Source: a virus
Lineage: Duplodnaviria; Caudoviricetes
Virus record (IMG/VR): IMGVR_UViG_3300020045_005903
Location: 7,644-71,643 of that record
DNA: 64,000 nucleotides
Direction: 5' to 3' (one strand)
Positions 1,470 to 14,566 of this stretch are shown piece after piece. The translations under genes were made by a program, and so were the position numbers. The notes beneath the pieces were generated by a model. That model was given only the letters and a program-made list of their open reading frames with translations. It was not told the origin of the DNA and ran no database searches. Each line of letters begins with the position of its first letter. Positions within the stretch are counted from its first letter, which is position 1.

Positions 1470-1599
1470 CCATAACGTACCGCAGGTTTATTTAGTGCGG
1501 GATTTAACAGATAAATTAACTTAAAAGCAGAAAATATGAAATTACTAAAATGGCTATTTGGGAGCAGGAAACCCGCATTGAATAAACCTGTTGTTAGCG
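1470..1599. other. attC-like site S1
   Basis: CCATAAC ... arms 1483-1501/1572-1590 (19 bp, 2 G-T) ... GTTAGCG; ATG of next gene lies in the loop. Confidence 0.8.
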
Positions 1600-1805: not shown

Positions 1806-1899
1806 CGCTAACGTAAAAGCATTTATGTCAGGCGGGCATAGATGCAACTTTAAATAATAATGCAAGTGTCCGCCCGCTTGCATAAATGCAGTGTTAGCT
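1806..1899. other. attC-like site S2
   Basis: CGCTAAC-GTAAAA-GCATTTATG(T)CAGGCGGG ... CCCGCTTG-CATAAATGC-AGT-GTTAGCT. Confidence 0.85.
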
Positions 1900-1909
1900 G
1901 CCGTAATTT

Positions 1910-2233
1910 ATGATAAAAGTTTATATAGCAAGTCCATACACATTAGGTGATGTGGCAGTAAATGTCAAACTACAACTTGACACAGTAGATGAATTGATGA
2001 ACAAAGGGTTTGCACCTTTTGCACCATTATATTCTCACTTTCAGCACATAGCACACCCAAGACCTTATCAAGATTGGGTTAAGATAGATTTGGAGTGGGT
2101 AAAGGTTTGTGATTGCTTATTAAGGCTTGATGGCGAAAGCAAAGGTGCTGATGGTGAGGTCAGCTATGCAAAAGAATTAGGTCTGCCAGTATTTTATTCG
2201 ATAGACGATATGTGTCTGTATTATGGCAACTAA
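1910..2233 (+). CDS. Cassette-borne DUF1937/DUF4406-like (nucleoside deoxyribosyltransferase-like fold) protein
   Basis: KVYIASPY ... CDCLLRLDGESKGADGEVSYAKELGLPVF pattern; stop TAA lies inside the TAAC of S3. Confidence 0.7.
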   Translation: MIKVYIASPYTLGDVAVNVKLQLDTVDELMNKGFAPFAPLYSHFQHIAHPRPYQDWVKIDLEWVKVCDCLLRLDGESKGADGEVSYAKELGLPVFYSIDDMCLYYGN

Positions 2234-2320
2234 CGGTATCGGGCTTGGCGAAGGTGGGCTTGTAGGATGCTCAATTTTAGCAGGATGTTTCTGCCCACTT
2301 TTGCCAAACCCGTGTTATAA
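2228..2320. other. attC-like site S3
   Basis: AACTAAC-GGTAT-CGGGCTTGGCGAAGGTGGGC ... GCCCACTTTTGCCAAACCCG-T-GTTATAA. Confidence 0.85.
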
Positions 2321-2389: not shown

Positions 2390-3169
2390 ATGGAAATAAA
2401 TAAAATATATAACGAGAATTGCCTTGATACGATGGCTAAAATGCCTGATAAGTTTGTGGACTTGGTAGTTACTTCACCGCCTTACAATATGCGAACAAGA
2501 ATAAGGAACGGACAATACACCACAAGAGAGAAAAGCGAACATTTTAGCAAGAAGTATAAGCATTTTGACGATGCCTTACCGATAAATGATTTTTACGAAT
2601 TTCATAGCAGCGTATTGACCGAACTATTAAGAGTATCGAAAATTGTTTGCTATAACTTTCAGATAGTAACTGGAAGCAAAGAAGCGTTTTTTAAAATCAT
2701 TGGCGACTTTAATAAGGACATTAAGGATATTATCATTTGGGATAAAGGAAGCGGACAGCCTGCAATGCACGGAATGGTTTTAAATAGCTGCTATGAAATG
2801 GTATTGATATTAGAAGATGACAAAAGAGCAGGAAGGGCAATACAGAACGCTAAATTCAAAAGAGGCGAAATGAATAACATTTTGAGAATTGGCAGAGGCA
2901 AAAAAGTATCTGATGTTCACGGTGCAATTTTCCCTGAACAACTACCATTTGATTTGATAAACGCTTTTTCAGAAAAAGAAACATTGATTTACGACCCTTT
3001 TATGGGAAGCGGAACGACTGGATTAGTAGCAAGTAAATTAGGCAGAAAATATATTGGAAGTGAAATAACAGAAGAATATTGTAAAATAGCTGAAAATCGT
3101 ATTAAAGAGTGCGGTGGGCTTTTTTTTAATTCTTTTGAAACGGAATTGTCAAACGAAGCAGGAACGTAG
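2390..3169 (+). CDS. Cassette-borne DNA methyltransferase (N4-C/N6-A, beta class)
   Basis: Motif IV TSPPYN before motif I DPFMGSGTT; CLDTM/DLVVTS N-terminus; IGSEI. Confidence 0.9.
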   Translation: MEINKIYNENCLDTMAKMPDKFVDLVVTSPPYNMRTRIRNGQYTTREKSEHFSKKYKHFDDALPINDFYEFHSSVLTELLRVSKIVCYNFQIVTGSKEAFFKIIGDFNKDIKDIIIWDKGSGQPAMHGMVLNSCYEMVLILEDDKRAGRAIQNAKFKRGEMNNILRIGRGKKVSDVHGAIFPEQLPFDLINAFSEKETLIYDPFMGSGTTGLVASKLGRKYIGSEITEEYCKIAENRIKECGGLFFNSFETELSNEAGT

Positions 3170-3177
3170 CAGCTTGC

Positions 3178-3195
3178 TTATAACTATTATATGTA
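3178..3195. other. attI-like terminal site of array 1
   Basis: TTATAAC followed by TATTATATGTA with no hairpin; 3181-3195 is identical to 12600-12614. Confidence 0.7.
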
Positions 3196-7453: not shown

Positions 7454-7637
7454 TTGGACAAAGCTAGGCTATAAAGCGGAACCAACAGAAAAAGATTTAC
7501 CATTTATTACTTGGGGAGTATTTACAGGCTTTGAAATTTGGGATGATACAGATTGGTTTTTTGAATTAACAACAAAGGAACAATACGAAAGAATGTTTTG
7601 GGGGAAATTAAATTATCCTATTAAGCTTAAAAAATGA
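7440..7637 (+). CDS. Hypothetical protein
   Basis: 65-aa ORF overlapping both neighbours. Confidence 0.6.
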   Translation: MEIGNWTKLGYKAEPTEKDLPFITWGVFTGFEIWDDTDWFFELTTKEQYERMFWGKLNYPIKLKK

Positions 7638-8998
7638 CAGACAACTTACAGCTAATTGAAATAGAATTAAAGCTTCTTGGCACATATATGGACACATCCG
7701 ACCTATTCGAGAAGTGTAACCATCTTGTCTCAGAGGGCATATTCTTACGCCCCGTCACCAAAGCTTCCTATAAAATTATTAAAGCCCTCCATCAACAGGG
7801 AACTAAGCCAGACCAATCCTTAGTGTTTGCACAACTTAAAATTCTAGGATTTTCAAAACAAGACTGCTCCACTATTTTAGGAGTGAGTTTTGATTATTCC
7901 TACGGCCGCCAACCCGAACATTATGTAGATATTCTATTTAAAAATAGCGTGGCGAATTTCCTACTTCCGCTACTTCAAGATACCCACTCAAAACTCTCAT
8001 CTGAAACAGGAGACAGCCTAGAGCTAATGGACTCTCTCAGCGAAGCTATTAATAAAGTTAACTTAGTAGTGAACAATGTAAGTAAAGAAAAACCAACCAC
8101 CGAAATATTTGATGAAGCAATACAAAGAATACTCGACCTTAAAAATAATGTAATAGAAAATGTAGGATATTCTTTTGGACTCAAAGACCTAGACTCTAAA
8201 ACAGGAGGATTAGCAAAAGGAATTACGGTTGTTGGAGCTGTACCTGGAGCCGGAAAATCCTCACTCGTAATTAATATCTTGACAACAAACGCAATAAACA
8301 ATTCTGTGCCAACCCTATTCTTTTCTATTGAAATGCCTGCAATAGACATTATGACCAATATCATTGCTAATAAGTCTAACATTAATTCTAGGGCATTAAG
8401 ACAAGGAGATGTGAATGACGGAGAGATACTGTCTATAAAGTCGATCAAAGAAAGCTTAGGAAGTCATTTTGAGATTGATGATAACGGAGGTGTAACTTGG
8501 CAGTATATTGAAGCTAAGATTAAGTCCTTCCGGAAAAAGAATAAAGTGCCAATGTCCCAAACTATTTTATGCCCTATTGATTACTTACAATTAATGAGTA
8601 ATTCGGCGGACGAAATTAAAGGGACTAGTGATGAGCAAAGGATAAGTAAAATTTGTAAAGAATTAACTAGAATTACTAAGTCAGAGAATGTGGCCATTGT
8701 ATTACTGTCGCAGTTAAGTAGACCACCTAAAGGAGAAGTTCCTAGACCTAAGATGAGTGATTTAAAGGGTAGTGGAGCTATTGAGGCGTGTGCTATTCTA
8801 GTGCTGCTACTATTCCGCCCCGAATACTCAGGTATTCTTACAGACGACAATGGAAGGGATTTAAGGGGATTGTGCGAGATTAATCCTGCTAAGGGAAGGT
8901 ATATTAAACCCGAACCTGTGTATGTAAAATTTGTGGGAAAATATAGTAAATTTGAGGATTGTGATGATAATTTATCCTCTTCTGATTCAGCGCTTTAA
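7634..8998 (+). CDS. dnaB: DnaB-like replicative helicase
   Basis: GAVPGAGKSS, FSIEM, IDYLQLM, LSQLSR, SDLKGSGAIE motifs. Confidence 0.95.
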   Translation: MTDNLQLIEIELKLLGTYMDTSDLFEKCNHLVSEGIFLRPVTKASYKIIKALHQQGTKPDQSLVFAQLKILGFSKQDCSTILGVSFDYSYGRQPEHYVDILFKNSVANFLLPLLQDTHSKLSSETGDSLELMDSLSEAINKVNLVVNNVSKEKPTTEIFDEAIQRILDLKNNVIENVGYSFGLKDLDSKTGGLAKGITVVGAVPGAGKSSLVINILTTNAINNSVPTLFFSIEMPAIDIMTNIIANKSNINSRALRQGDVNDGEILSIKSIKESLGSHFEIDDNGGVTWQYIEAKIKSFRKKNKVPMSQTILCPIDYLQLMSNSADEIKGTSDEQRISKICKELTRITKSENVAIVLLSQLSRPPKGEVPRPKMSDLKGSGAIEACAILVLLLFRPEYSGILTDDNGRDLRGLCEINPAKGRYIKPEPVYVKFVGKYSKFEDCDDNLSSSDSAL

Positions 8999-9054
8999 TA
9001 AATTACTTGCAATTATTTGAAACCTTTTATTTATCTTTACGTTAAAGTAGGTAT

Positions 9055-9243
9055 ATGGAAAATAAAATAGATAAAAATTCTGCCTCAGTAAATATTTATG
9101 CTTGGACTTATACTAACGCTCCTTTATCGGAATTAAAAGAATGGGTTGATTCACAAATTTCTGATGGCAAAACCCACGTAAGATTAGAATTAGAATGGGG
9201 GTATTATGATGACATCGAAAGCTTACACATTACAGCCAAATAA
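9055..9243 (+). CDS. Hypothetical protein
   Basis: 62-aa ORF after promoter-like TTGAAACCTTT..TATCTTTAC. Confidence 0.6.
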   Translation: MENKIDKNSASVNIYAWTYTNAPLSELKEWVDSQISDGKTHVRLELEWGYYDDIESLHITAK

Positions 9244-9247
9244 AACT

Positions 9248-9451
9248 ATGGAAAAAACAATCAGTAACTCATCCCAAGTCACTCATATTAAATGGGCAGA
9301 CAAAATCCTTACAGTAACATTTGTAGGAGATAAGAAATACGAATACCTAGAAGTTCCCCAAAGTATTTACGATGCCGCGATTGCCGCCGAGAGCATAGGA
9401 AAGTTTTTGAATAGTGAAGTGAAGAATAAATTTAAATTTAATAAAGTATGA
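9248..9451 (+). CDS. KTSC-domain protein
   Basis: SSQVTHI..LTVTF..KYEYLEVPQSIY..AESIGKFLNSEVK; start placed at 9248 rather than 9206. Confidence 0.85.
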   Translation: MEKTISNSSQVTHIKWADKILTVTFVGDKKYEYLEVPQSIYDAAIAAESIGKFLNSEVKNKFKFNKV

Positions 9452-10455
9452 GCAAGAAACCAACCACAGAAGTAACGGTATCTAATCCTAAACTTCAAAA
9501 AGACCTAGAGTTAGTCCAATCCCTACAAACCCAAGTGGACACCGTAGGAACTCAATTACTGCAAGTAAAAGTGATGGATGATTCCACACTATCAATCTGC
9601 CAACAAAACCTCTCTAAAGTCAACTCTATAGTTAAAACTATCGAAGAGAAACGAGTGGAACTTAAAGCTCCCTACCTTGAAGCCGGTAAACAAATCGACT
9701 CCCTTTGCAAGTCTATTACCGACCTAGCAGTGAAAAGTATTACCCACGCTAAGTCTGAAATAGCTAATTGGGAAAATGCTAGGTTAGCACTCGCCGCAGC
9801 AGCACAAGCTGAGGTTGACGCAAAAGCTAAAGCTGAAGCTGATAAGATCGCCGCAAATGAAACTCGTAAAAAAGGAATATTAGACTTTATTTCAACTACA
9901 CTTAAACCTTACCTTCAATCTACTTATGACTCTTTAAAATCAGCAGAGGACTGTGATGTATTCTTAGCTAAGATTAAAAAAGACTTTCCTGGAGAAGCCA
10001 AGTTTCAAGAATATTTACAGGACGCTAATCAAATTAGAGATAATTACATAGATTTAATAAATGGTAAAAAAGCTCAATTTAGTGCGGCGGCGAATATCTC
10101 TGAATCTGAATTAGCTTTAATGAAAGAGAAAGAAAGATTAACCCTAATGCAACAAGAACTTGACAATGAAAAATTAAGAGTTAAGCAGCTAGAGGAGTAT
10201 GCTAAATTAGAGAGAGAAAGAAAAGCTGCTGAGGAATTAGCAGAGCTAGAAAAAGCTAAATTACAAGCGGCTGCAGGCCTAGAGAAAACTAAAGGAGTTA
10301 GATACATTGATAAGTTTGAGGTGATAGATTTTGATAAAGTGCCAAGAGAATTTTTATGTGTAGATGAGGCTAAAGTTAAAGCTTATCAAAAGGAGAATAA
10401 AATAGGAGAGATTACCGGAATTAGATTTTTTAAACAATCAAGCATAGTAGCCTAA
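9448..10455 (+). CDS. Coiled-coil protein, DUF1351/Gp157/Gam-like
   Basis: Long coiled coil; KRVELKAPYLEAGKQID; C-terminal DFDKVPREFLCVDEAKVK; stop TAA forms the TAAC of S4. Confidence 0.55.
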   Translation: MSKKPTTEVTVSNPKLQKDLELVQSLQTQVDTVGTQLLQVKVMDDSTLSICQQNLSKVNSIVKTIEEKRVELKAPYLEAGKQIDSLCKSITDLAVKSITHAKSEIANWENARLALAAAAQAEVDAKAKAEADKIAANETRKKGILDFISTTLKPYLQSTYDSLKSAEDCDVFLAKIKKDFPGEAKFQEYLQDANQIRDNYIDLINGKKAQFSAAANISESELALMKEKERLTLMQQELDNEKLRVKQLEEYAKLERERKAAEELAELEKAKLQAAAGLEKTKGVRYIDKFEVIDFDKVPREFLCVDEAKVKAYQKENKIGEITGIRFFKQSSIVA

Positions 10456-10569
10456 CGGTTTGCACATTGGCGTTGTTGCCACAGAATTTAATTAAAAACA
10501 ATAAACTTTAATATTATGACAAAAGTATCAAACGAAGAGCAAAGCAATAACGCCAATGTGCTGTTAGGT
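10450..10569. other. attC-like site S4
   Basis: GCCTAAC (RYYYAAC) ... arms 10462-10479/10544-10561 (17/18 WC, 1 G-T) ... GTTAGGT (GTTRRRY). Confidence 0.9.
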
Positions 10570-10824
10570 GAAGTTACATTGTGTGTAGGCTTCAATGCTC
10601 ACCGATTAAAAGAGAATGACGATTATCACAAAAAAGAATGTGATTTTGTGAAAGCCATTAACCAAGAGATGAAATATAATAAAAGCACTTTAGCTCAAAT
10701 GGTGAACCATCCCGACCACAAAGAATGGCTTGAAGAAAATGAGCAAAAGATTGTGTTAAGCGTGATACAATGGTTAGGAACGCCAGTAGGACAGGGATTT
10801 TTGGAGAAGGTGGCAAAAATGTAA
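10516..10824 (+). CDS. Cassette-borne hypothetical protein
   Basis: ATG in the loop of S4; SNNANVLLGEV is encoded by the right arm and core. Confidence 0.75.
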   Translation: MTKVSNEEQSNNANVLLGEVTLCVGFNAHRLKENDDYHKKECDFVKAINQEMKYNKSTLAQMVNHPDHKEWLEENEQKIVLSVIQWLGTPVGQGFLEKVAKM

Positions 10825-10828
10825 TTTC

Positions 10829-11257
10829 ACCTAACGTTTTCGGGCTAAGAGAAGTAAAACCCTTTAGAGCGGTGGGGGATTTCATCGCTCAAATTAAATA
10901 TAAATAACTCAAATGGAAAAAACATTGAGCAACACAACAGCAAGCCAAGCCAAAGACAACGTGAAAGACATCGTGTTTTGGGGCAATGGCGACACCTTCA
11001 AATTAATTAGCAAAGCATCATCCAAAAATGAAGGTTGGATGAAATCTTCAAAGGCAATGGAAATTGAAGGTGTAGGATGCGTAGTGCAAGTTACCACCCA
11101 ACAAGGTGAGAATATTGCAGAGGCGGTAACTTTTGTACCTAATGTAAAAATTGAGGAAACAAAAGGTGATGATGGAGTGGTAACTTCTCGTAAGTTGATT
11201 GCCATTTAGTACGGTGCGTGGGCAAAGGGTTTTATTTCTTCTTAGCCCGTGTTATAA
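10829..11257. other. Giant attC-like site S5 with a gene in its loop
   Basis: ACCTAAC ... arms 10841-10865/11224-11249 ... GTTATAA. Confidence 0.8.
10913..11209 (+). CDS. Conserved phage hypothetical protein inside the S5 loop
   Basis: 98 aa; GWMKSSKAMEI..GCVVQVTTQQG..AEAVTFVP; AT-rich leader. Confidence 0.8.
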   Translation: MEKTLSNTTASQAKDNVKDIVFWGNGDTFKLISKASSKNEGWMKSSKAMEIEGVGCVVQVTTQQGENIAEAVTFVPNVKIEETKGDDGVVTSRKLIAI

Positions 11258-11296
11258 GTCAGGTGGGCATTTTCGCCCACTTGCGTTAAACAATAT

Positions 11297-11402
11297 GTTA
11301 GTGGTAGTGCTTTAGAAGTATGCCCTGGCTGTAAAACGAAAAATAGACATTGGTACGCAAAAGATTATTGGTGTTGTGCATTTTGTTAGCATTACCGCTA
11401 AC
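11297..11402 (+). pseudogene. Mini-cassette remnant with a start-less Cys-rich reading frame
   Basis: Ends GTTAGTGGTAGTGCT/AGCATTACCGCTAAC are complementary; frame VSGSALEVCPGCKTKNRHWYAKDYWCCAFC* has no in-frame ATG. Confidence 0.5.
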
Positions 11403-11474
11403 GTTTTGCAGCTAATGGCTGGTGGCTTTTATAGGCTGTTAGTTTGTGCCACTTGCCATTAGGTGCTGTTATGT
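11396..11474. other. attC-like site S6
   Basis: CGCTAAC-GTTTT-GCAGCTAATGGCTGGTGGC ... GCCACTTGCCATTAGGTGC-T-GTTATGT. Confidence 0.85.
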
Positions 11475-11535
11475 TGGTGCGCTGGCAAGTGTGTGGGGCA
11501 GTTTTATTTTATTAATTTTTAAAAAAGCGAAGGAA

Positions 11536-11808
11536 ATGAAGTTAACATTATTACAAAGATTAATTGAGTTTGTGATTCAATTTAAATACAAACATAATTT
11601 ACAGCCGACCTACAACTATAAGGTTGGTGACAAGGTGAAATATAACTGGAAAGGAAAAGTTATGCTTAGACCAGTTATAAACGATAGAGCAGAGGATGTT
11701 TTGGTAATAAATGAAGTAAAGCATAAAAGGAATGAGTTTATCAACTATCAAAATACAAGAACAAAAAAACGAGGATGGTTAGATGCTTACTGGTTAAAAC
11801 GTGCGTAG
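11536..11808 (+). CDS. Cassette-borne hypothetical protein
   Basis: Start moved from 11446 (inside S6) to MKLTLLQ after AAGGAA; YKVGDKVKY motif. Confidence 0.7.
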   Translation: MKLTLLQRLIEFVIQFKYKHNLQPTYNYKVGDKVKYNWKGKVMLRPVINDRAEDVLVINEVKHKRNEFINYQNTRTKKRGWLDAYWLKRA

Positions 11809-11837
11809 GCTTTTAAAAATTAATAAAATAAAATTGA

Positions 11838-11926
11838 ACATAACGGTTACAGCTTGCCGATAGTAAGGCAAATACCCGAAAAAAATAAAAAATCATTTGC
11901 CTTATTTTGGCAAGGTGGTGTTAAAT
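11838..11926. other. attC-like site S7
   Basis: ACATAAC-GGTTA-CAGCTTGCCGATAGTAAGGCAAAT ... ATTTGCCTTATTTTGGCAAGGTG-GT-GTTAAAT. Confidence 0.85.
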
Positions 11927-11968
11927 GCAGTGCGGACTTAATTAATAACTAAAAAATAAATAAATAAA

Positions 11969-12193
11969 ATGGCTGACTTAAAAACATTAGTAAAAGACAA
12001 CAAGGTGAAATTCGATTTTTACCGAGCAGGAGTAATGTATTACACCGTTACATCCGAAGAAAAAACATATCGCTTTCCTGTGCCACTTGAGGATATAGGA
12101 GATGCGACATTACTTGCAGAAGATAAAGCCATTTTATTTATGCGTTACATACGAAAGGCAATTAATAGCAATGAGCTTCAAACAGTGCAGTAG
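11969..12193 (+). CDS. Cassette-borne conserved phage hypothetical protein
   Basis: 74 aa; FYRAGVMYY..FPVPLEDIGDATLLAEDKAILFMRYIRKA. Confidence 0.8.
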   Translation: MADLKTLVKDNKVKFDFYRAGVMYYTVTSEEKTYRFPVPLEDIGDATLLAEDKAILFMRYIRKAINSNELQTVQ

Positions 12194-12199
12194 CATTGC

Positions 12200-12328
12200 A
12201 TTTAACGTTCGATGCTTGTGGCAGGTGGCATTAAAAGCACAAATGTAAATTAACCGATAAAGTAAAATTGAAAAACAGAATTTAATATTAACCGCAGACC
12301 GCCACTTGCCTACAAGCATTTGTTAGTG
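12200..12328. other. attC-like site S8
   Basis: ATTTAAC-GTTC-GATGCTTGTGGCAGGTGGC ... GCCACTTGCC(T)ACAAGCATT-T-GTTAGTG. Confidence 0.85.
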
Positions 12329-12350
12329 GTCTGTTTAAAAACAAAAAGCG

Positions 12351-12578
12351 ATGGCAGACTTAGAAAAAATTAGACAAGCACAAATGATTGCAGGTGAAAA
12401 CGCTGTGATTGCAGGATTAAAAGCAAAAGGATTGCTACCTAAAGATGAACAGAGCGAGGACTCGTTGCTATTTTTCAACTTATTTAGAGAAGTAAGAAAT
12501 GAAATAGCAACGGAGGAGGGCTATGTGCTGCAAGATGCAATACGAATAACATTTGATAGATGGATGAAGCGTGGGTAG
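12351..12578 (+). CDS. Cassette-borne hypothetical protein
   Basis: 75-aa ORF between S8 and the attI-like site. Confidence 0.75.
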   Translation: MADLEKIRQAQMIAGENAVIAGLKAKGLLPKDEQSEDSLLFFNLFREVRNEIATEEGYVLQDAIRITFDRWMKRG

Positions 12579-12596
12579 GCTTTGTTTTTAAATTGC

Positions 12597-12614
12597 CACT
12601 AACTATTATATGTA
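12597..12614. other. attI-like terminal site of array 2
   Basis: CACTAAC-TATTATATGTA; 39 bp upstream of the recombinase ATG; 15-mer shared with 3181-3195. Confidence 0.75.
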
Positions 12615-12653
12615 GGATTAACTTGTAATGTATTAAAAATTAAATATATAATT

Positions 12654-13487
12654 ATGGAAATTCCAAGATGGCACGAAAGATATTGTATGGACTCAGCTTT
12701 AAAATATCCAAGTAAAGCAACCCAAGAAAACTACCAAAGTACAGTTTTAGGTTTTTTGCATTACTTTAAAAATGATGTTGACCCCTCTCACATAAAAACG
12801 GATGACATTAAAAAGTGGCTCTTAACTTTTGAAACGATTAATACTCGTAATCATAAATTATGTGGTATAAAATCCTTTTATCAAATTACCGTTGGGATGC
12901 CTTTAAAATTGGATAAAATACCATTCAGCAAAAAGGACAACAAGCTACCGGAAATTTTAGAGAGAGAAGAGATACAGTCATTATTAAAAGTTTGCACAAA
13001 CACAAAACACAAATTAATAATTACAATCCTTTATGCTTGCGGACTAAGGATAAGTGAAATTTTAAATCTTAAATTAATTCACATTAACAAAGATACCATT
13101 GATATTAAATGTGCTAAAGGCAGAAAAGATAGAATAGTTCAATTGCCAACGAGGGTTAAGCAAAGAATTGACGAATATACTTTGGAGTATAAGCCTATTG
13201 AGTATTTGTTTAATGGTCAGTTCCCCGAAAAAGAATTAAGATATAATGAAAGGTCTGTAAACGAATTTTTAAAAAAATATGCTACGTTAGCAGGAATAAA
13301 AACCCACGTTCATGCGCATAAAATTCGTCATTGTTATGCCACCCATACTTTAGAAGATGGAACAACCTTGCCATTTTTACAAGAAATGCTTGGACACAAT
13401 AGTCCTAAAACTACATCAATATATATTCACACATCGAGGCGATCAATTGCAAGACAAACGTCTCCCGTTGATGGAATGGATTTTTAA
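12654..13487 (+). CDS. Tyrosine recombinase (XerC/D / integron-integrase-like)
   Basis: Catalytic set GLRISE, KGRKDR, HKIRH, LGH, TSIY; 277 aa. Confidence 0.95.
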   Translation: MEIPRWHERYCMDSALKYPSKATQENYQSTVLGFLHYFKNDVDPSHIKTDDIKKWLLTFETINTRNHKLCGIKSFYQITVGMPLKLDKIPFSKKDNKLPEILEREEIQSLLKVCTNTKHKLIITILYACGLRISEILNLKLIHINKDTIDIKCAKGRKDRIVQLPTRVKQRIDEYTLEYKPIEYLFNGQFPEKELRYNERSVNEFLKKYATLAGIKTHVHAHKIRHCYATHTLEDGTTLPFLQEMLGHNSPKTTSIYIHTSRRSIARQTSPVDGMDF

Positions 13488-13489
13488 CA

Positions 13490-13768
13490 GTGGCAAGAAG
13501 ACTTAAAATACCCGATGAGCTATTAATCCTAAACCCCACCTTAAACAAGAAGGAACTAAGGACTATCCTAAATGTTATCCTGAATAGCCGCCGGAATAGA
13601 ATGCGTCAAGCCTACATATTTGACATAAGATTACCTAGCTTAGGGAGAATGAGGTCTAATGGTAATAAGGTACATAAACACAACAAAAAGACATTGAGTA
13701 GGGACAGGAAAAGAAAGAGAATTGAAACTAAAACTAATGACTTAAAGAGAGTTAACCTATTATGGTAG
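13490..13768 (+). CDS. Basic hypothetical protein
   Basis: 92 aa, Lys/Arg-rich. Confidence 0.6.
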   Translation: MARRLKIPDELLILNPTLNKKELRTILNVILNSRRNRMRQAYIFDIRLPSLGRMRSNGNKVHKHNKKTLSRDRKRKRIETKTNDLKRVNLLW

Positions 13769-13772
13769 AATT

Positions 13773-13817
13773 ATTTTCATTATTTTGCAACCTTTATTAA
13801 AATAAGTAGTATATTAG
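13773..13817 (+). promoter_or_regulatory. Putative phage promoter
   Basis: ATTTTCATTATTTTGCAACCTTT...AAGTAGTATAT, nearly identical to the 1370-1420 element. Confidence 0.6.
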
Positions 13818-13864
13818 CGTACAATTAAATAAATATATAAACAGTCAAAAAACAGTCAAAAATT

Positions 13865-14566
13865 ATGAGCCTAAACGGACAATCATTCGAGAAAAAACAA
13901 AGACCAATCGCCCCACAAGGGTTGCAAGTAGCTATATGCTACAGCGTAATAGATTTGGGAACGCACATGAACAGTTATCAGGGGCAGGAGCCAAAGCCTG
14001 TATCTCTAGTTCATTTCAGTTGGGAATTTCCTAACTTACCACACCAAGTATTTAAAGAAGGAGACACACCTAAACCCTTAGCAATATTCCAAGAATATTC
14101 AACAAGTTTGGGGGAAAAAGCAAAATTACCAAAAATGTTGCAGTCATGGCGCCTTGTGCCGCCGGTAGACCTAGCAAAAGAGCTTCCAATGTTCGTTGGC
14201 CAACCTTGCTACGTTAATGTAACTCACGCAAAGGATAAGAATAATTCTGAGATTACTTATGCTAATGTTGCAATGAATGGTTTAGGAATAATAAATTTGC
14301 CAAAGGGAACTCAGGTGAATGGATTAACTAATCCTAAAATGTTCTTTAACCTTGACAATTACTCTCACGCTGAATTTGCTAAGCTACCTGCTTGGATTCA
14401 GAAGAAAATTCAAAGTTCTTTAGAGTGGAGTGGTATTGTGGCTAAATATGGTGCGCCGCCAACAGTTGCCGCCACTACTCAGCCTGCTAATACATTTCAG
14501 CAGCCTATTCAAAATCAAGCGCCGATTATTACAGAAGATACGTTTAATACTAATCCCCCCTTCTAG
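13865..14566 (+). CDS. Putative single-stranded DNA-binding protein
   Basis: AICYSVIDLGTH, LPAWIQKKI motifs; Q/P-rich linker and acidic-aromatic C-terminus (..PPF). Confidence 0.55.
   Translation: MSLNGQSFEKKQRPIAPQGLQVAICYSVIDLGTHMNSYQGQEPKPVSLVHFSWEFPNLPHQVFKEGDTPKPLAIFQEYSTSLGEKAKLPKMLQSWRLVPPVDLAKELPMFVGQPCYVNVTHAKDKNNSEITYANVAMNGLGIINLPKGTQVNGLTNPKMFFNLDNYSHAEFAKLPAWIQKKIQSSLEWSGIVAKYGAPPTVAATTQPANTFQQPIQNQAPIITEDTFNTNPPF

Follow-up and report, generated by a model that had tools for sequence, protein, structure and literature searches.

A phage attC-like site with a complete Lockin-family gene inside its hairpin loop

The stretch of DNA analysed here (the window, 64,000 nucleotides) comprises bases 7644-71643 of a 71,643 bp IMG/VR virus record with an estimated completeness of 94% (CheckV). 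Small genes of the early type and replication genes, including one for a DnaB-like helicase, occupy approximately the first 19 kb of the plus strand, and long open reading frames (ORFs) of up to 2395 aa are found on the minus strand past 19 kb. No match at the DNA level was obtained when the region 9000-14000 was compared with deposited phage genomes by blastn. Promoter-like boxes (TTATATTTGTAAAGGA; TTTTCATTATTTTGCAACCTTT) are repeated at 885-900, 1289-1310, 1380-1400 and 13775-13795; they resemble the TAnnTTTG −7 element of Bacteroidota and would fit a Bacteroidota host. The window carries eight attC-like sites in two arrays, S1-S3 (1470-2320) and S4-S8 (10450-12328), the surroundings of which are as follows.

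1470-1599, plus strand: site S1, array 1
1806-1899, plus strand: site S2, array 1
2228-2320, plus strand: site S3 (93 nt), array 1
2390-3169, plus strand: N6_N4 DNA methylase gene after S3 (Pfam, E 1.6e-33)
3178-3195, plus strand: second attI-like copy, TTATAAC then TATTATATGTA, ending array 1 after the DNA methylase cassette
7634-8998, plus strand: DnaB-like helicase gene
10450-10569, plus strand: site S4 (120 nt), the loop of which includes the ATG (10516) of ORF 10516-10824
10829-11257, plus strand: site S5, the subject of this study
11258-11395, plus strand: cassette body after S5, non-coding, decayed-site debris by appearance
11396-11474, plus strand: site S6 (79 nt)
11838-11926, plus strand: site S7 (89 nt)
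12200-12328, plus strand: site S8 (129 nt)
12597-12614, plus strand: attI-like end of array 2, CACTAAC then TATTATATGTA, just upstream of the recombinase gene
12654-13487, plus strand: 277-aa Xer-like tyrosine recombinase (Pfam Phage_integrase, E 1e-32)

All eight sites carry TAAC plus a G on the left and a T plus GTTA on the right. Most have an imperfect stem and, as is usual in the family, asymmetric spacers with 5 nt at the left versus 1-2 nt at the right. The boxes of integron attC sites follow the consensus 5'-RYYYAAC ... GTTRRRY-3'. A strict scan for the pattern TAAC, spacer, stem ... stem, GTTA returned 38 sites in 478 kb of real sequence versus one in shuffled sequence. Furthermore, the R' box of one site is the reverse complement, at seven of seven positions, of the R'' box of the next. 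This pairing rule is exact in six of the eight links of the window (S1-S2, S3-attI-like, S4-S5, S6-S7, S7-S8 and S8-attI-like) and in all nine links of the related contig L065, an S5-type site included; it is broken at the S5-to-S6 link. Such reciprocal R'/R'' complementarity along an array is characteristic of integron-type cassettes.

The recombinase gene begins 39 nt after the end of array 2. The TAAC-TATTATATGTA motif at this end also precedes the orthologous recombinase of the related locus L003, where the array abuts it as well; it is regarded as a putative attI-like site on the basis of its conserved position only, no insertion having been observed. No recombinase gene lies beside the copy at 3178-3195, and the phage therefore has two array ends and one enzyme.

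Several further features of the arrays were recorded. Two cassette ORFs begin in the loop of the preceding site (10516-10824 in S4 and about 1537-1800 in S1) and read through its right arm and R' box, and several others stop at the TAA of the next R'' box (9448-10455 and 1910-2233). In an ordinary cassette body, ORF 11536-11808 is bracketed by a 26-nt inverted repeat with 96% complementarity (11499-11524/11811-11836), and ORF 12351-12578 is bracketed by a similar repeat (12333-12349 with 12579-12593); the pairing of the R boxes is thus prolonged into stems that close cassette bodies as well. Between S2 and S3, the cassette gene at 1910-2233 matches DUF7768/DUF4406 (E 8e-10), and the methylase cassette that follows S3 is likely to be an anti-restriction cassette. 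Nearly identical copies of the 93-nt S3-type site are present in L065 (7428-7520) and L069 (4810-4902).

A preliminary description of this DNA had given sizes of 79-130 bp for the seven sites other than S5, and the same range, 79-130 nt, was measured here. S5 itself spans 429 nt, and its relatives in other contigs (S5-type sites) span 271-432 nt, which places them outside the normal attC size; classical attC sites measure roughly 57-141 bp. The parts of S5 are listed below.

10829-10835, plus strand: R'' box ACCTAAC, the exact complement of the S4 R' box
10836-10840, plus strand: unpaired 5-nt spacer GTTTT, opposite the single T at 11250
10841-10865, plus strand: left stem arm
10866-10912, plus strand: loop leader provided by the conserved frame, a small hairpin and then an A/T-rich stretch
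10913-11209, plus strand: loop cargo, a gene for a 98-aa Lockin-family homologue
11214-11223, plus strand: right loop-edge motif GTGCGTGGGC, which recurs at the 3' ends of other cassette genes
11224-11249, plus strand: right stem arm with one bulged T
11250-11257, plus strand: spacer T, then the R' box GTTATAA (11251-11257)

These positions bear out the preliminary description, in which the arms were said to pair with one extra T on the right and one G-T pair and to enclose an intact 98-aa ORF with an AT-rich leader. The two arms are mutual partners, both irregularities are present, the ORF lies wholly within the 358-nt loop and the A/T-rich leader is found within 10866-10912. The proposal that ACCTAAC and GTTATAA form the cores requires qualification: both are present at the two ends, but these 7-mers pair with each other only via TAAC/GTTA. 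The full complement of ACCTAAC is instead GTTAGGT, the R' box of the preceding S4 (10563-10569), and the pairing between the S4 R' and S5 R'' boxes extends to 17 of 18 bases (10563-10580 with 10818-10835). ACCTAAC is an exact fit to the attC consensus RYYYAAC; in GTTATAA the GTTR portion of GTTRRRY fits, and two of the last three positions deviate. The bulge lies in the left arm or is absent in relatives, as against the one bulged T of the right arm and the one G-T pair in S5, and the canonical attC pattern of flipped-out G and T bases was not seen; in attC sites, conserved extrahelical bases determine which strand is used. Within the loop, GAGCG (10867-10871) pairs with CGCTC (10886-10890) to form the leader hairpin, the stem of which changes on both sides in relatives, and GTGCGTGGGC at the right edge is similar to the left edge in direct orientation. 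An antisense ORF, also of 98 aa (10909-11205), was rejected because the plus-strand product is the Lockin homologue.

When S5 was folded as single-stranded DNA, a check that had been suggested beforehand, the arms were paired in the minimum-energy and centroid folds of both strands, with z scores of −7.2 and −7.4 for the two strands; none of 100 shuffled sequences folded as well. That the site also folds as a single strand in vivo is an inference. The cassette body after S5 contains a short hairpin (11262-11288, CAGGTGGGC-ATTTTC-GCCCACTTG) followed by GTTAAAC, and just before S6 there is an 'empty' junction, GTTAGCA-TTAC-CGCTAAC (GTTAGC...GCTAAC, 11386-11402).

The identity of the loop cargo was established by homology. 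The loop protein matches the protein of PDB entry 9p8l, the solved structure of Lockin with 3'cADPR, with a phmmer E value of 1.1e-20; its AlphaFold2 model (mean pLDDT 88) is related to the same entry by Foldseek with an E value of 1e-7, a TM score of 0.69-0.72 and 48% identity, and PF26760 is indicated by ESM Atlas. The Thoeris signals 3'cADPR and His-ADPR are sequestered by Lockin proteins, as shown for other members of the family (preprint, 10.1101/2025.07.12.664507). Homology is all that was demonstrated for the S5 protein, and signal binding and the blocking of Thoeris are inferred from the family. Homologues of the protein were located at 59 loci in viral contigs. The arms accompany only the closest group of homologues (L003-L007, 87% identity); the other approximately 50 Lockin loci have ordinary operon flanks, with no arms and, at the strict threshold, no sites.

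The arm sequences, when searched for in viral, metagenome and genome contigs, recovered the same frame with different contents. Intact arms are present at 16 distinct sites, whose loops measure 200-361 nt and each enclose a single forward ORF of 48-98 aa, and these ORFs fall into 14 families without mutual BLASTP similarity. The constant parts are the R'' core, spacer, arm and leader at the left and GGTGCG(N)TGGC, the arm, T and GTTA at the right, so that the variable part is essentially the ORF; TAAC/GTTA is retained in 12 of 14 aligned S5-type sites. Comparison of ten of the other loop ORFs with Pfam and PHROGs gave only one confident match, to a PHROG without assigned function; a weak Pfam match, to a domain of unknown function, stayed below threshold. 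Most S5-type sites are followed by a near-empty cassette body in which the R' box, TCGTTTTAATG and the R'' box form a 9-bp stem with an 11-nt loop (L003 3341-3378, plus strand; also L065, L069, L071, L086, L092, L093 and L097-L099). The stems of these mini-bodies change on both sides between copies (GTTATGGCA/TGCCATAAC, GTTAGCAAA/TTTGCTAAC and GTTATAGCA/TGCTATAAC).

The suggestion of the preliminary description that the loop is itself a cargo slot is strongly supported by these homologous arms and conserved loop edges around 14 unrelated families, and by the occurrence of the Lockin gene as an ordinary, armless gene at about 50 other phage loci. A whole gene in the S5 loop and the same frame around 14 unrelated genes argue that the loop is a true cargo position, a conclusion that rests on comparative data. 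An empty-loop version, for which a search had been proposed, was not found: all matches to the arm pattern in viral, metagenome and genome collections have loops of at least 200 nt, and no allele with 4-34 nt between the arms was found in viral contigs. The frame therefore seems always to be loaded. In addition, the junctions predicted for precise excision of the window S5 cassette (ACCTAA + CGTTTTGCAGC) and of the L063 cassette are absent from viral contigs.

A gene might also come to lie in an ordinary attC site as part of a small mobile element, whether MITE-like with terminal inverted repeats, of the IS1111-attC type or a group IIC-attC intron, and attC-targeting insertion sequences and group IIC introns are indeed known routes for a gene into attC (PMC3001079). 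The S5 loop, however, holds the 98-aa sponge gene only, with no transposase and no reverse transcriptase, and no target-site duplication is present outside the arms, which are continuous with the R boxes at the standard spacing of the family. A search of 10300-12700 against Rfam gave no family at threshold and no intron, the only matches being two sub-threshold chance matches on S4. Very little credence can be given to such an insertion.

The stems of the S5-type sites were compared to examine how their pairing is maintained. In the 14 aligned sites, 99.2% of the cells are paired, and four base pairs have changed on both sides with the pairing kept, a number that was reached in none of 500 shuffles and that indicates selection on the stem. 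This covariation is real, but its basis is thin: all four changes derive from the window lineage alone, and the majority of stem pairs show no variation. The two-sided changes separate lineages with cargo proteins that are 87% identical. Over the outer 45 nt on each side, S5-type stems have −22.0 versus −16.6 kcal/mol and are the most stable in the arrays (Mann-Whitney, p 0.003, with the reservation that the long sites are not mutually independent). The possibility, raised beforehand as a potential refutation, that the arms are halves of two different sites with partners of their own fails on this evidence, as the arms are mutual partners and their pairing has been kept through two-sided changes.

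The strongest evidence that the S5-type unit moves, albeit read from sequence comparison, is a duplication in JAIBBA010000023.1. This 32.5-kb contig from a Chitinophagales metagenome-assembled genome consists mostly of long cassette arrays, with nine and seven sites in two 8-kb stretches that do not overlap (L101 and L103). An S5-type cassette with a 60-aa gene is present twice, at two positions in the long arrays, and the copies are 100% identical from their own R'' TAAC to the TAAC of the next site; the outer R'' bases are TTA in one and CAC in the other, and each complements the R' box of its upstream neighbour. The array-rich contig suggests that the system has its hosts among Chitinophagales (Bacteroidota), its own phage or prophage nature being unsettled. 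A second breakpoint is found between L063 and L070, which are identical rightwards from the TAAC of a 131-nt site and unrelated leftwards. Furthermore, the S5-type cassette of the L003 group lies directly against the attI-like site, with the recombinase next, and by analogy with integron logic this would be the entry position.

These observations also bear on whether S5 is a dead or fused site, the hairpin of which no longer recombines, with Lockin a passenger in a two-gene composite cassette moved by S4 and S6; the arms would then be relics of recent common ancestry or halves of two once-separate sites of the same type. The near invariance of the arms across sites fits a recent origin, decayed one-armed copies exist, the body downstream of S5 in the window is debris, and recombination in classical systems under replication is strongly reduced by a long loop (PMC8946536). 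Because this body is decayed and the S5-S6 pairing rule is broken, the window copy may be a fossil. However, the JAIBBA010000023.1 duplicate begins exactly at the TAAC of the S5-type site itself and not at the preceding short site, and in the L003 group the S5-type cassette stands alone against the attI-like site. The four two-sided pair changes between lineages with 87%-identical cargo are likewise at odds with inert relics, and 14 families in one frame require repeated loading or exchange of the loop content. A dead or fused origin is accordingly judged unlikely, without being dismissed.

An RNA function was also considered, in which a 25-bp stem in an early transcript would serve in RNase III-like processing or stabilization of a single-gene Lockin mRNA and the likeness to a recombination site would be secondary. 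All cassette genes are co-oriented with the arms, and transcription would therefore include the stem; inverted repeats closely bracket other cassette ORFs too, such as the repeat at 11499-11524/11811-11836, and the conserved leader hairpin in the loop looks regulatory. Nevertheless, the invariant TAACG and TGTTA cores of the family and their spacers flank the stem, and genome breakpoints lie exactly at the TAAC/GTTA cores. The gene, moreover, is intact in copies that have lost one arm (L085, L094, L076 and L072). There is only a slim chance that the stem acts primarily in RNA, and an RNA reading would not exclude a role in DNA.

The most probable explanation is that S5 is a genuine attC-like folded site belonging to a special cassette, which carries its gene inside the hairpin loop (the 'variable terminal structure') and not in the body. 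Its boundaries were derived from the breakpoints. The L063/L070 breakpoint and the linkage of the S3-type site to the downstream methylase gene in the window and L069, with no upstream link, indicate that a site and the gene downstream of it make up one cassette, with the plus strand cut at TAA|C. A different arrangement (Model A), with crossover at G|TT of the plus-strand R' box and a cassette made of a gene and then a site, was rejected: the breakpoints lie at the R'' TAAC, sites are linked to the downstream gene, as in the S3-type site with the methylase, and the S5-type site is linked to the mini-body after it. Breakpoints at TAAC are consistent with recombination at the conserved triplet; neither the enzyme nor the cleaved bond has been identified.

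The mechanism envisaged for S5 as a genuine folded site is as follows. A cassette would start with the C of a TAA|C box, finish with the TAA of the following box (10835-11401 in the case of S5) and contain first the site and then the gene. The minus strand of the window would correspond to the top strand of a classical integron; on that strand the attI-like site and recombinase take the classical position and each cassette ends in its site. The constant frame of the S5-type cassette consists of R'' box, 5-nt spacer, 25-bp arm and leader, then, after an exchangeable ORF, the GTGCG..GGC motif, the second arm, one T and the R' box. Exposure of the region as a single strand, for example in phage replication or recombination, could allow the long and near-perfect stem to zip and bring the TAAC and GTTA cores together despite the 358-nt loop. 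An Xer-like recombinase would then exchange strands at TAA|C with another site or the attI-like site, the inferred crossover in S5 falling between 10834 and 10835, and the gene would travel with its own site.

Recombination of a hairpin with a 358-nt loop is inferred, as it has never been observed for any long-loop site. In classical integrons, the replacement of the 65-nt loop of a Vibrio cholerae repeat (VCR) by a triplet changed recombination only about two-fold (PMC2727003), and loop length had no effect when the site was delivered as single-stranded DNA (PMC8946536); these results make a long loop plausible. Under replicative conditions, recombination was up to 10,000-fold lower with a long loop, which also prevents extrusion of the site as a cruciform (PMC8946536).

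The product of 12654-13487 is presumed to be the enzyme of the system. Its best NCBIfam matches are archaeal XerA and integron-integrase models, all of which are under their cut-offs (141 bits for the integron-integrase model TIGR02249, with a cut-off of 265), and its best PDB match is the archaeal recombinase XerA. An alignment to IntIA of Vibrio cholerae (PDB entry 2a3v) skips residues ∼178-200 of IntIA, and the segment specific to integron integrases is therefore absent from the recombinase in this alignment. That segment contacts the flipped-out bases of folded attC sites. The enzyme is not an integron integrase; without this segment, the system is integron-like in its working and is not a classical integron, and the use of folded single strands remains unproven. 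The orthologue in L003 (49% identity and also 277 aa) lies behind the same TAAC-TATTATATGTA motif; it was located via neighbouring loci, and a peptide-pattern search for the recombinase in viral contigs gave no match.

The whole-gene loop does not stand apart from the other sites. Many sites of ∼131 nt, including S1 and S4 of the window, hold an ATG and 15-20 codons of the downstream gene in the loop and right arm, a 186-nt site in L103 holds about 50 codons and S5-type sites hold a whole gene. The loop is thus a general coding position, and the S5 slot is the end of a continuum from gene starts to whole genes. The motif at the loop edge may bear on how such genes arrive. GTGCG(N1-2)(T/A/G)GGC occurs four times on the plus strand of the window (3109, 11214, 11477 and 11801) and not at all on the minus strand, against an expectation of 0.19, with relaxed matches at 10581, 11489 and 12571; no copy lies outside the arrays, and most mark the 3' end of a cassette gene. 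The motif flanks genes in ordinary cassette bodies, and at the two edges of S5-type loops it forms direct repeats, GTGCG(G/N)TGG(C). It is conceivable, although this is no more than a speculative suggestion, that the S5-type frame is a dedicated gene-loading module in which ORFs are swapped almost from start to stop between a conserved leader and trailer; the loading of ORFs into the frame is itself inferred. If so, anti-defence genes such as Lockin would be gathered in what amounts to a phage 'expression vector'. If the repeats at the loop edges mark a second, inner step of insertion or recombination, they would show how new cassettes arise, and nearly ORF-precise swapping in a constant frame may bear on the origin of gene cassettes, an old open question.

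Among known systems, the closest parallels are the large-loop attC sites of the VCR type in sedentary chromosomal integrons. Both have an imperfect palindrome R''-L''...L'-R', AAC/GTT cores, an unpaired asymmetric spacer and a variable loop, and in both one type of site serves many cargo genes in arrays with complementary cassette ends that terminate at a recombinase-proximal site. The variable terminal loop of classical sites ranges from 3 nt to a branched structure of 65 nt, so that the 358-nt loop of S5, with its complete gene and leader, contrasts with a largest classical loop of ∼65 nt, branched, in the ∼130-nt VCR (PMC2727003). The phage system also differs from classical integrons in that its cassette genes point towards the recombinase end, its Xer-like enzyme lacks the integron-integrase insert and its host replicon is a phage.

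Clusters of attC sites (CALINs) have been described in virulent phages, including a Bacteroidota (Polaribacter) phage (Qi et al., 2023; PMC9892861). As far as the accessible parts of that report extend, the two systems share attC-type sites bounding small genes and DNA methylase cassettes; the phage CALINs were found with standard attC detectors and have sites of normal size, and those parts make no mention of in-site genes, a phage Xer-like recombinase or an attI-like site. Group IIC-attC introns and IS1111-attC elements likewise place a coding sequence inside an attC site, but they are autonomous, interrupt the site and bring their own mobility gene (PMC3001079), whereas S5 holds an ordinary accessory gene in a conserved frame and has no features of an intron or insertion sequence. 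No printed description of an accessory gene inside an attC-like loop was found, the only printed cases found of coding sequence within an attC site being these introns and IS1111-attC elements.

Standard integron models have no place for the second cargo position that the loop of the site provides. In these models, as in the detection tools, an attC site is a short element beside a gene, and searches limited in size would therefore miss such sites or draw the cassettes wrongly. The design bears on the distance that a folded recombination site tolerates between its arms, and on whether an Xer-like enzyme without the integron-integrase insert uses folded single strands. Bacterial integrons store defence genes. 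The only loop gene with a known relative belongs to the Lockin family, which sponges Thoeris signals, and phage arrays may thus shuffle anti-defence genes, which would mirror this storage on the side of the phage; the 13 other genes carried by the frame offer an immediate set of anti-defence candidates.
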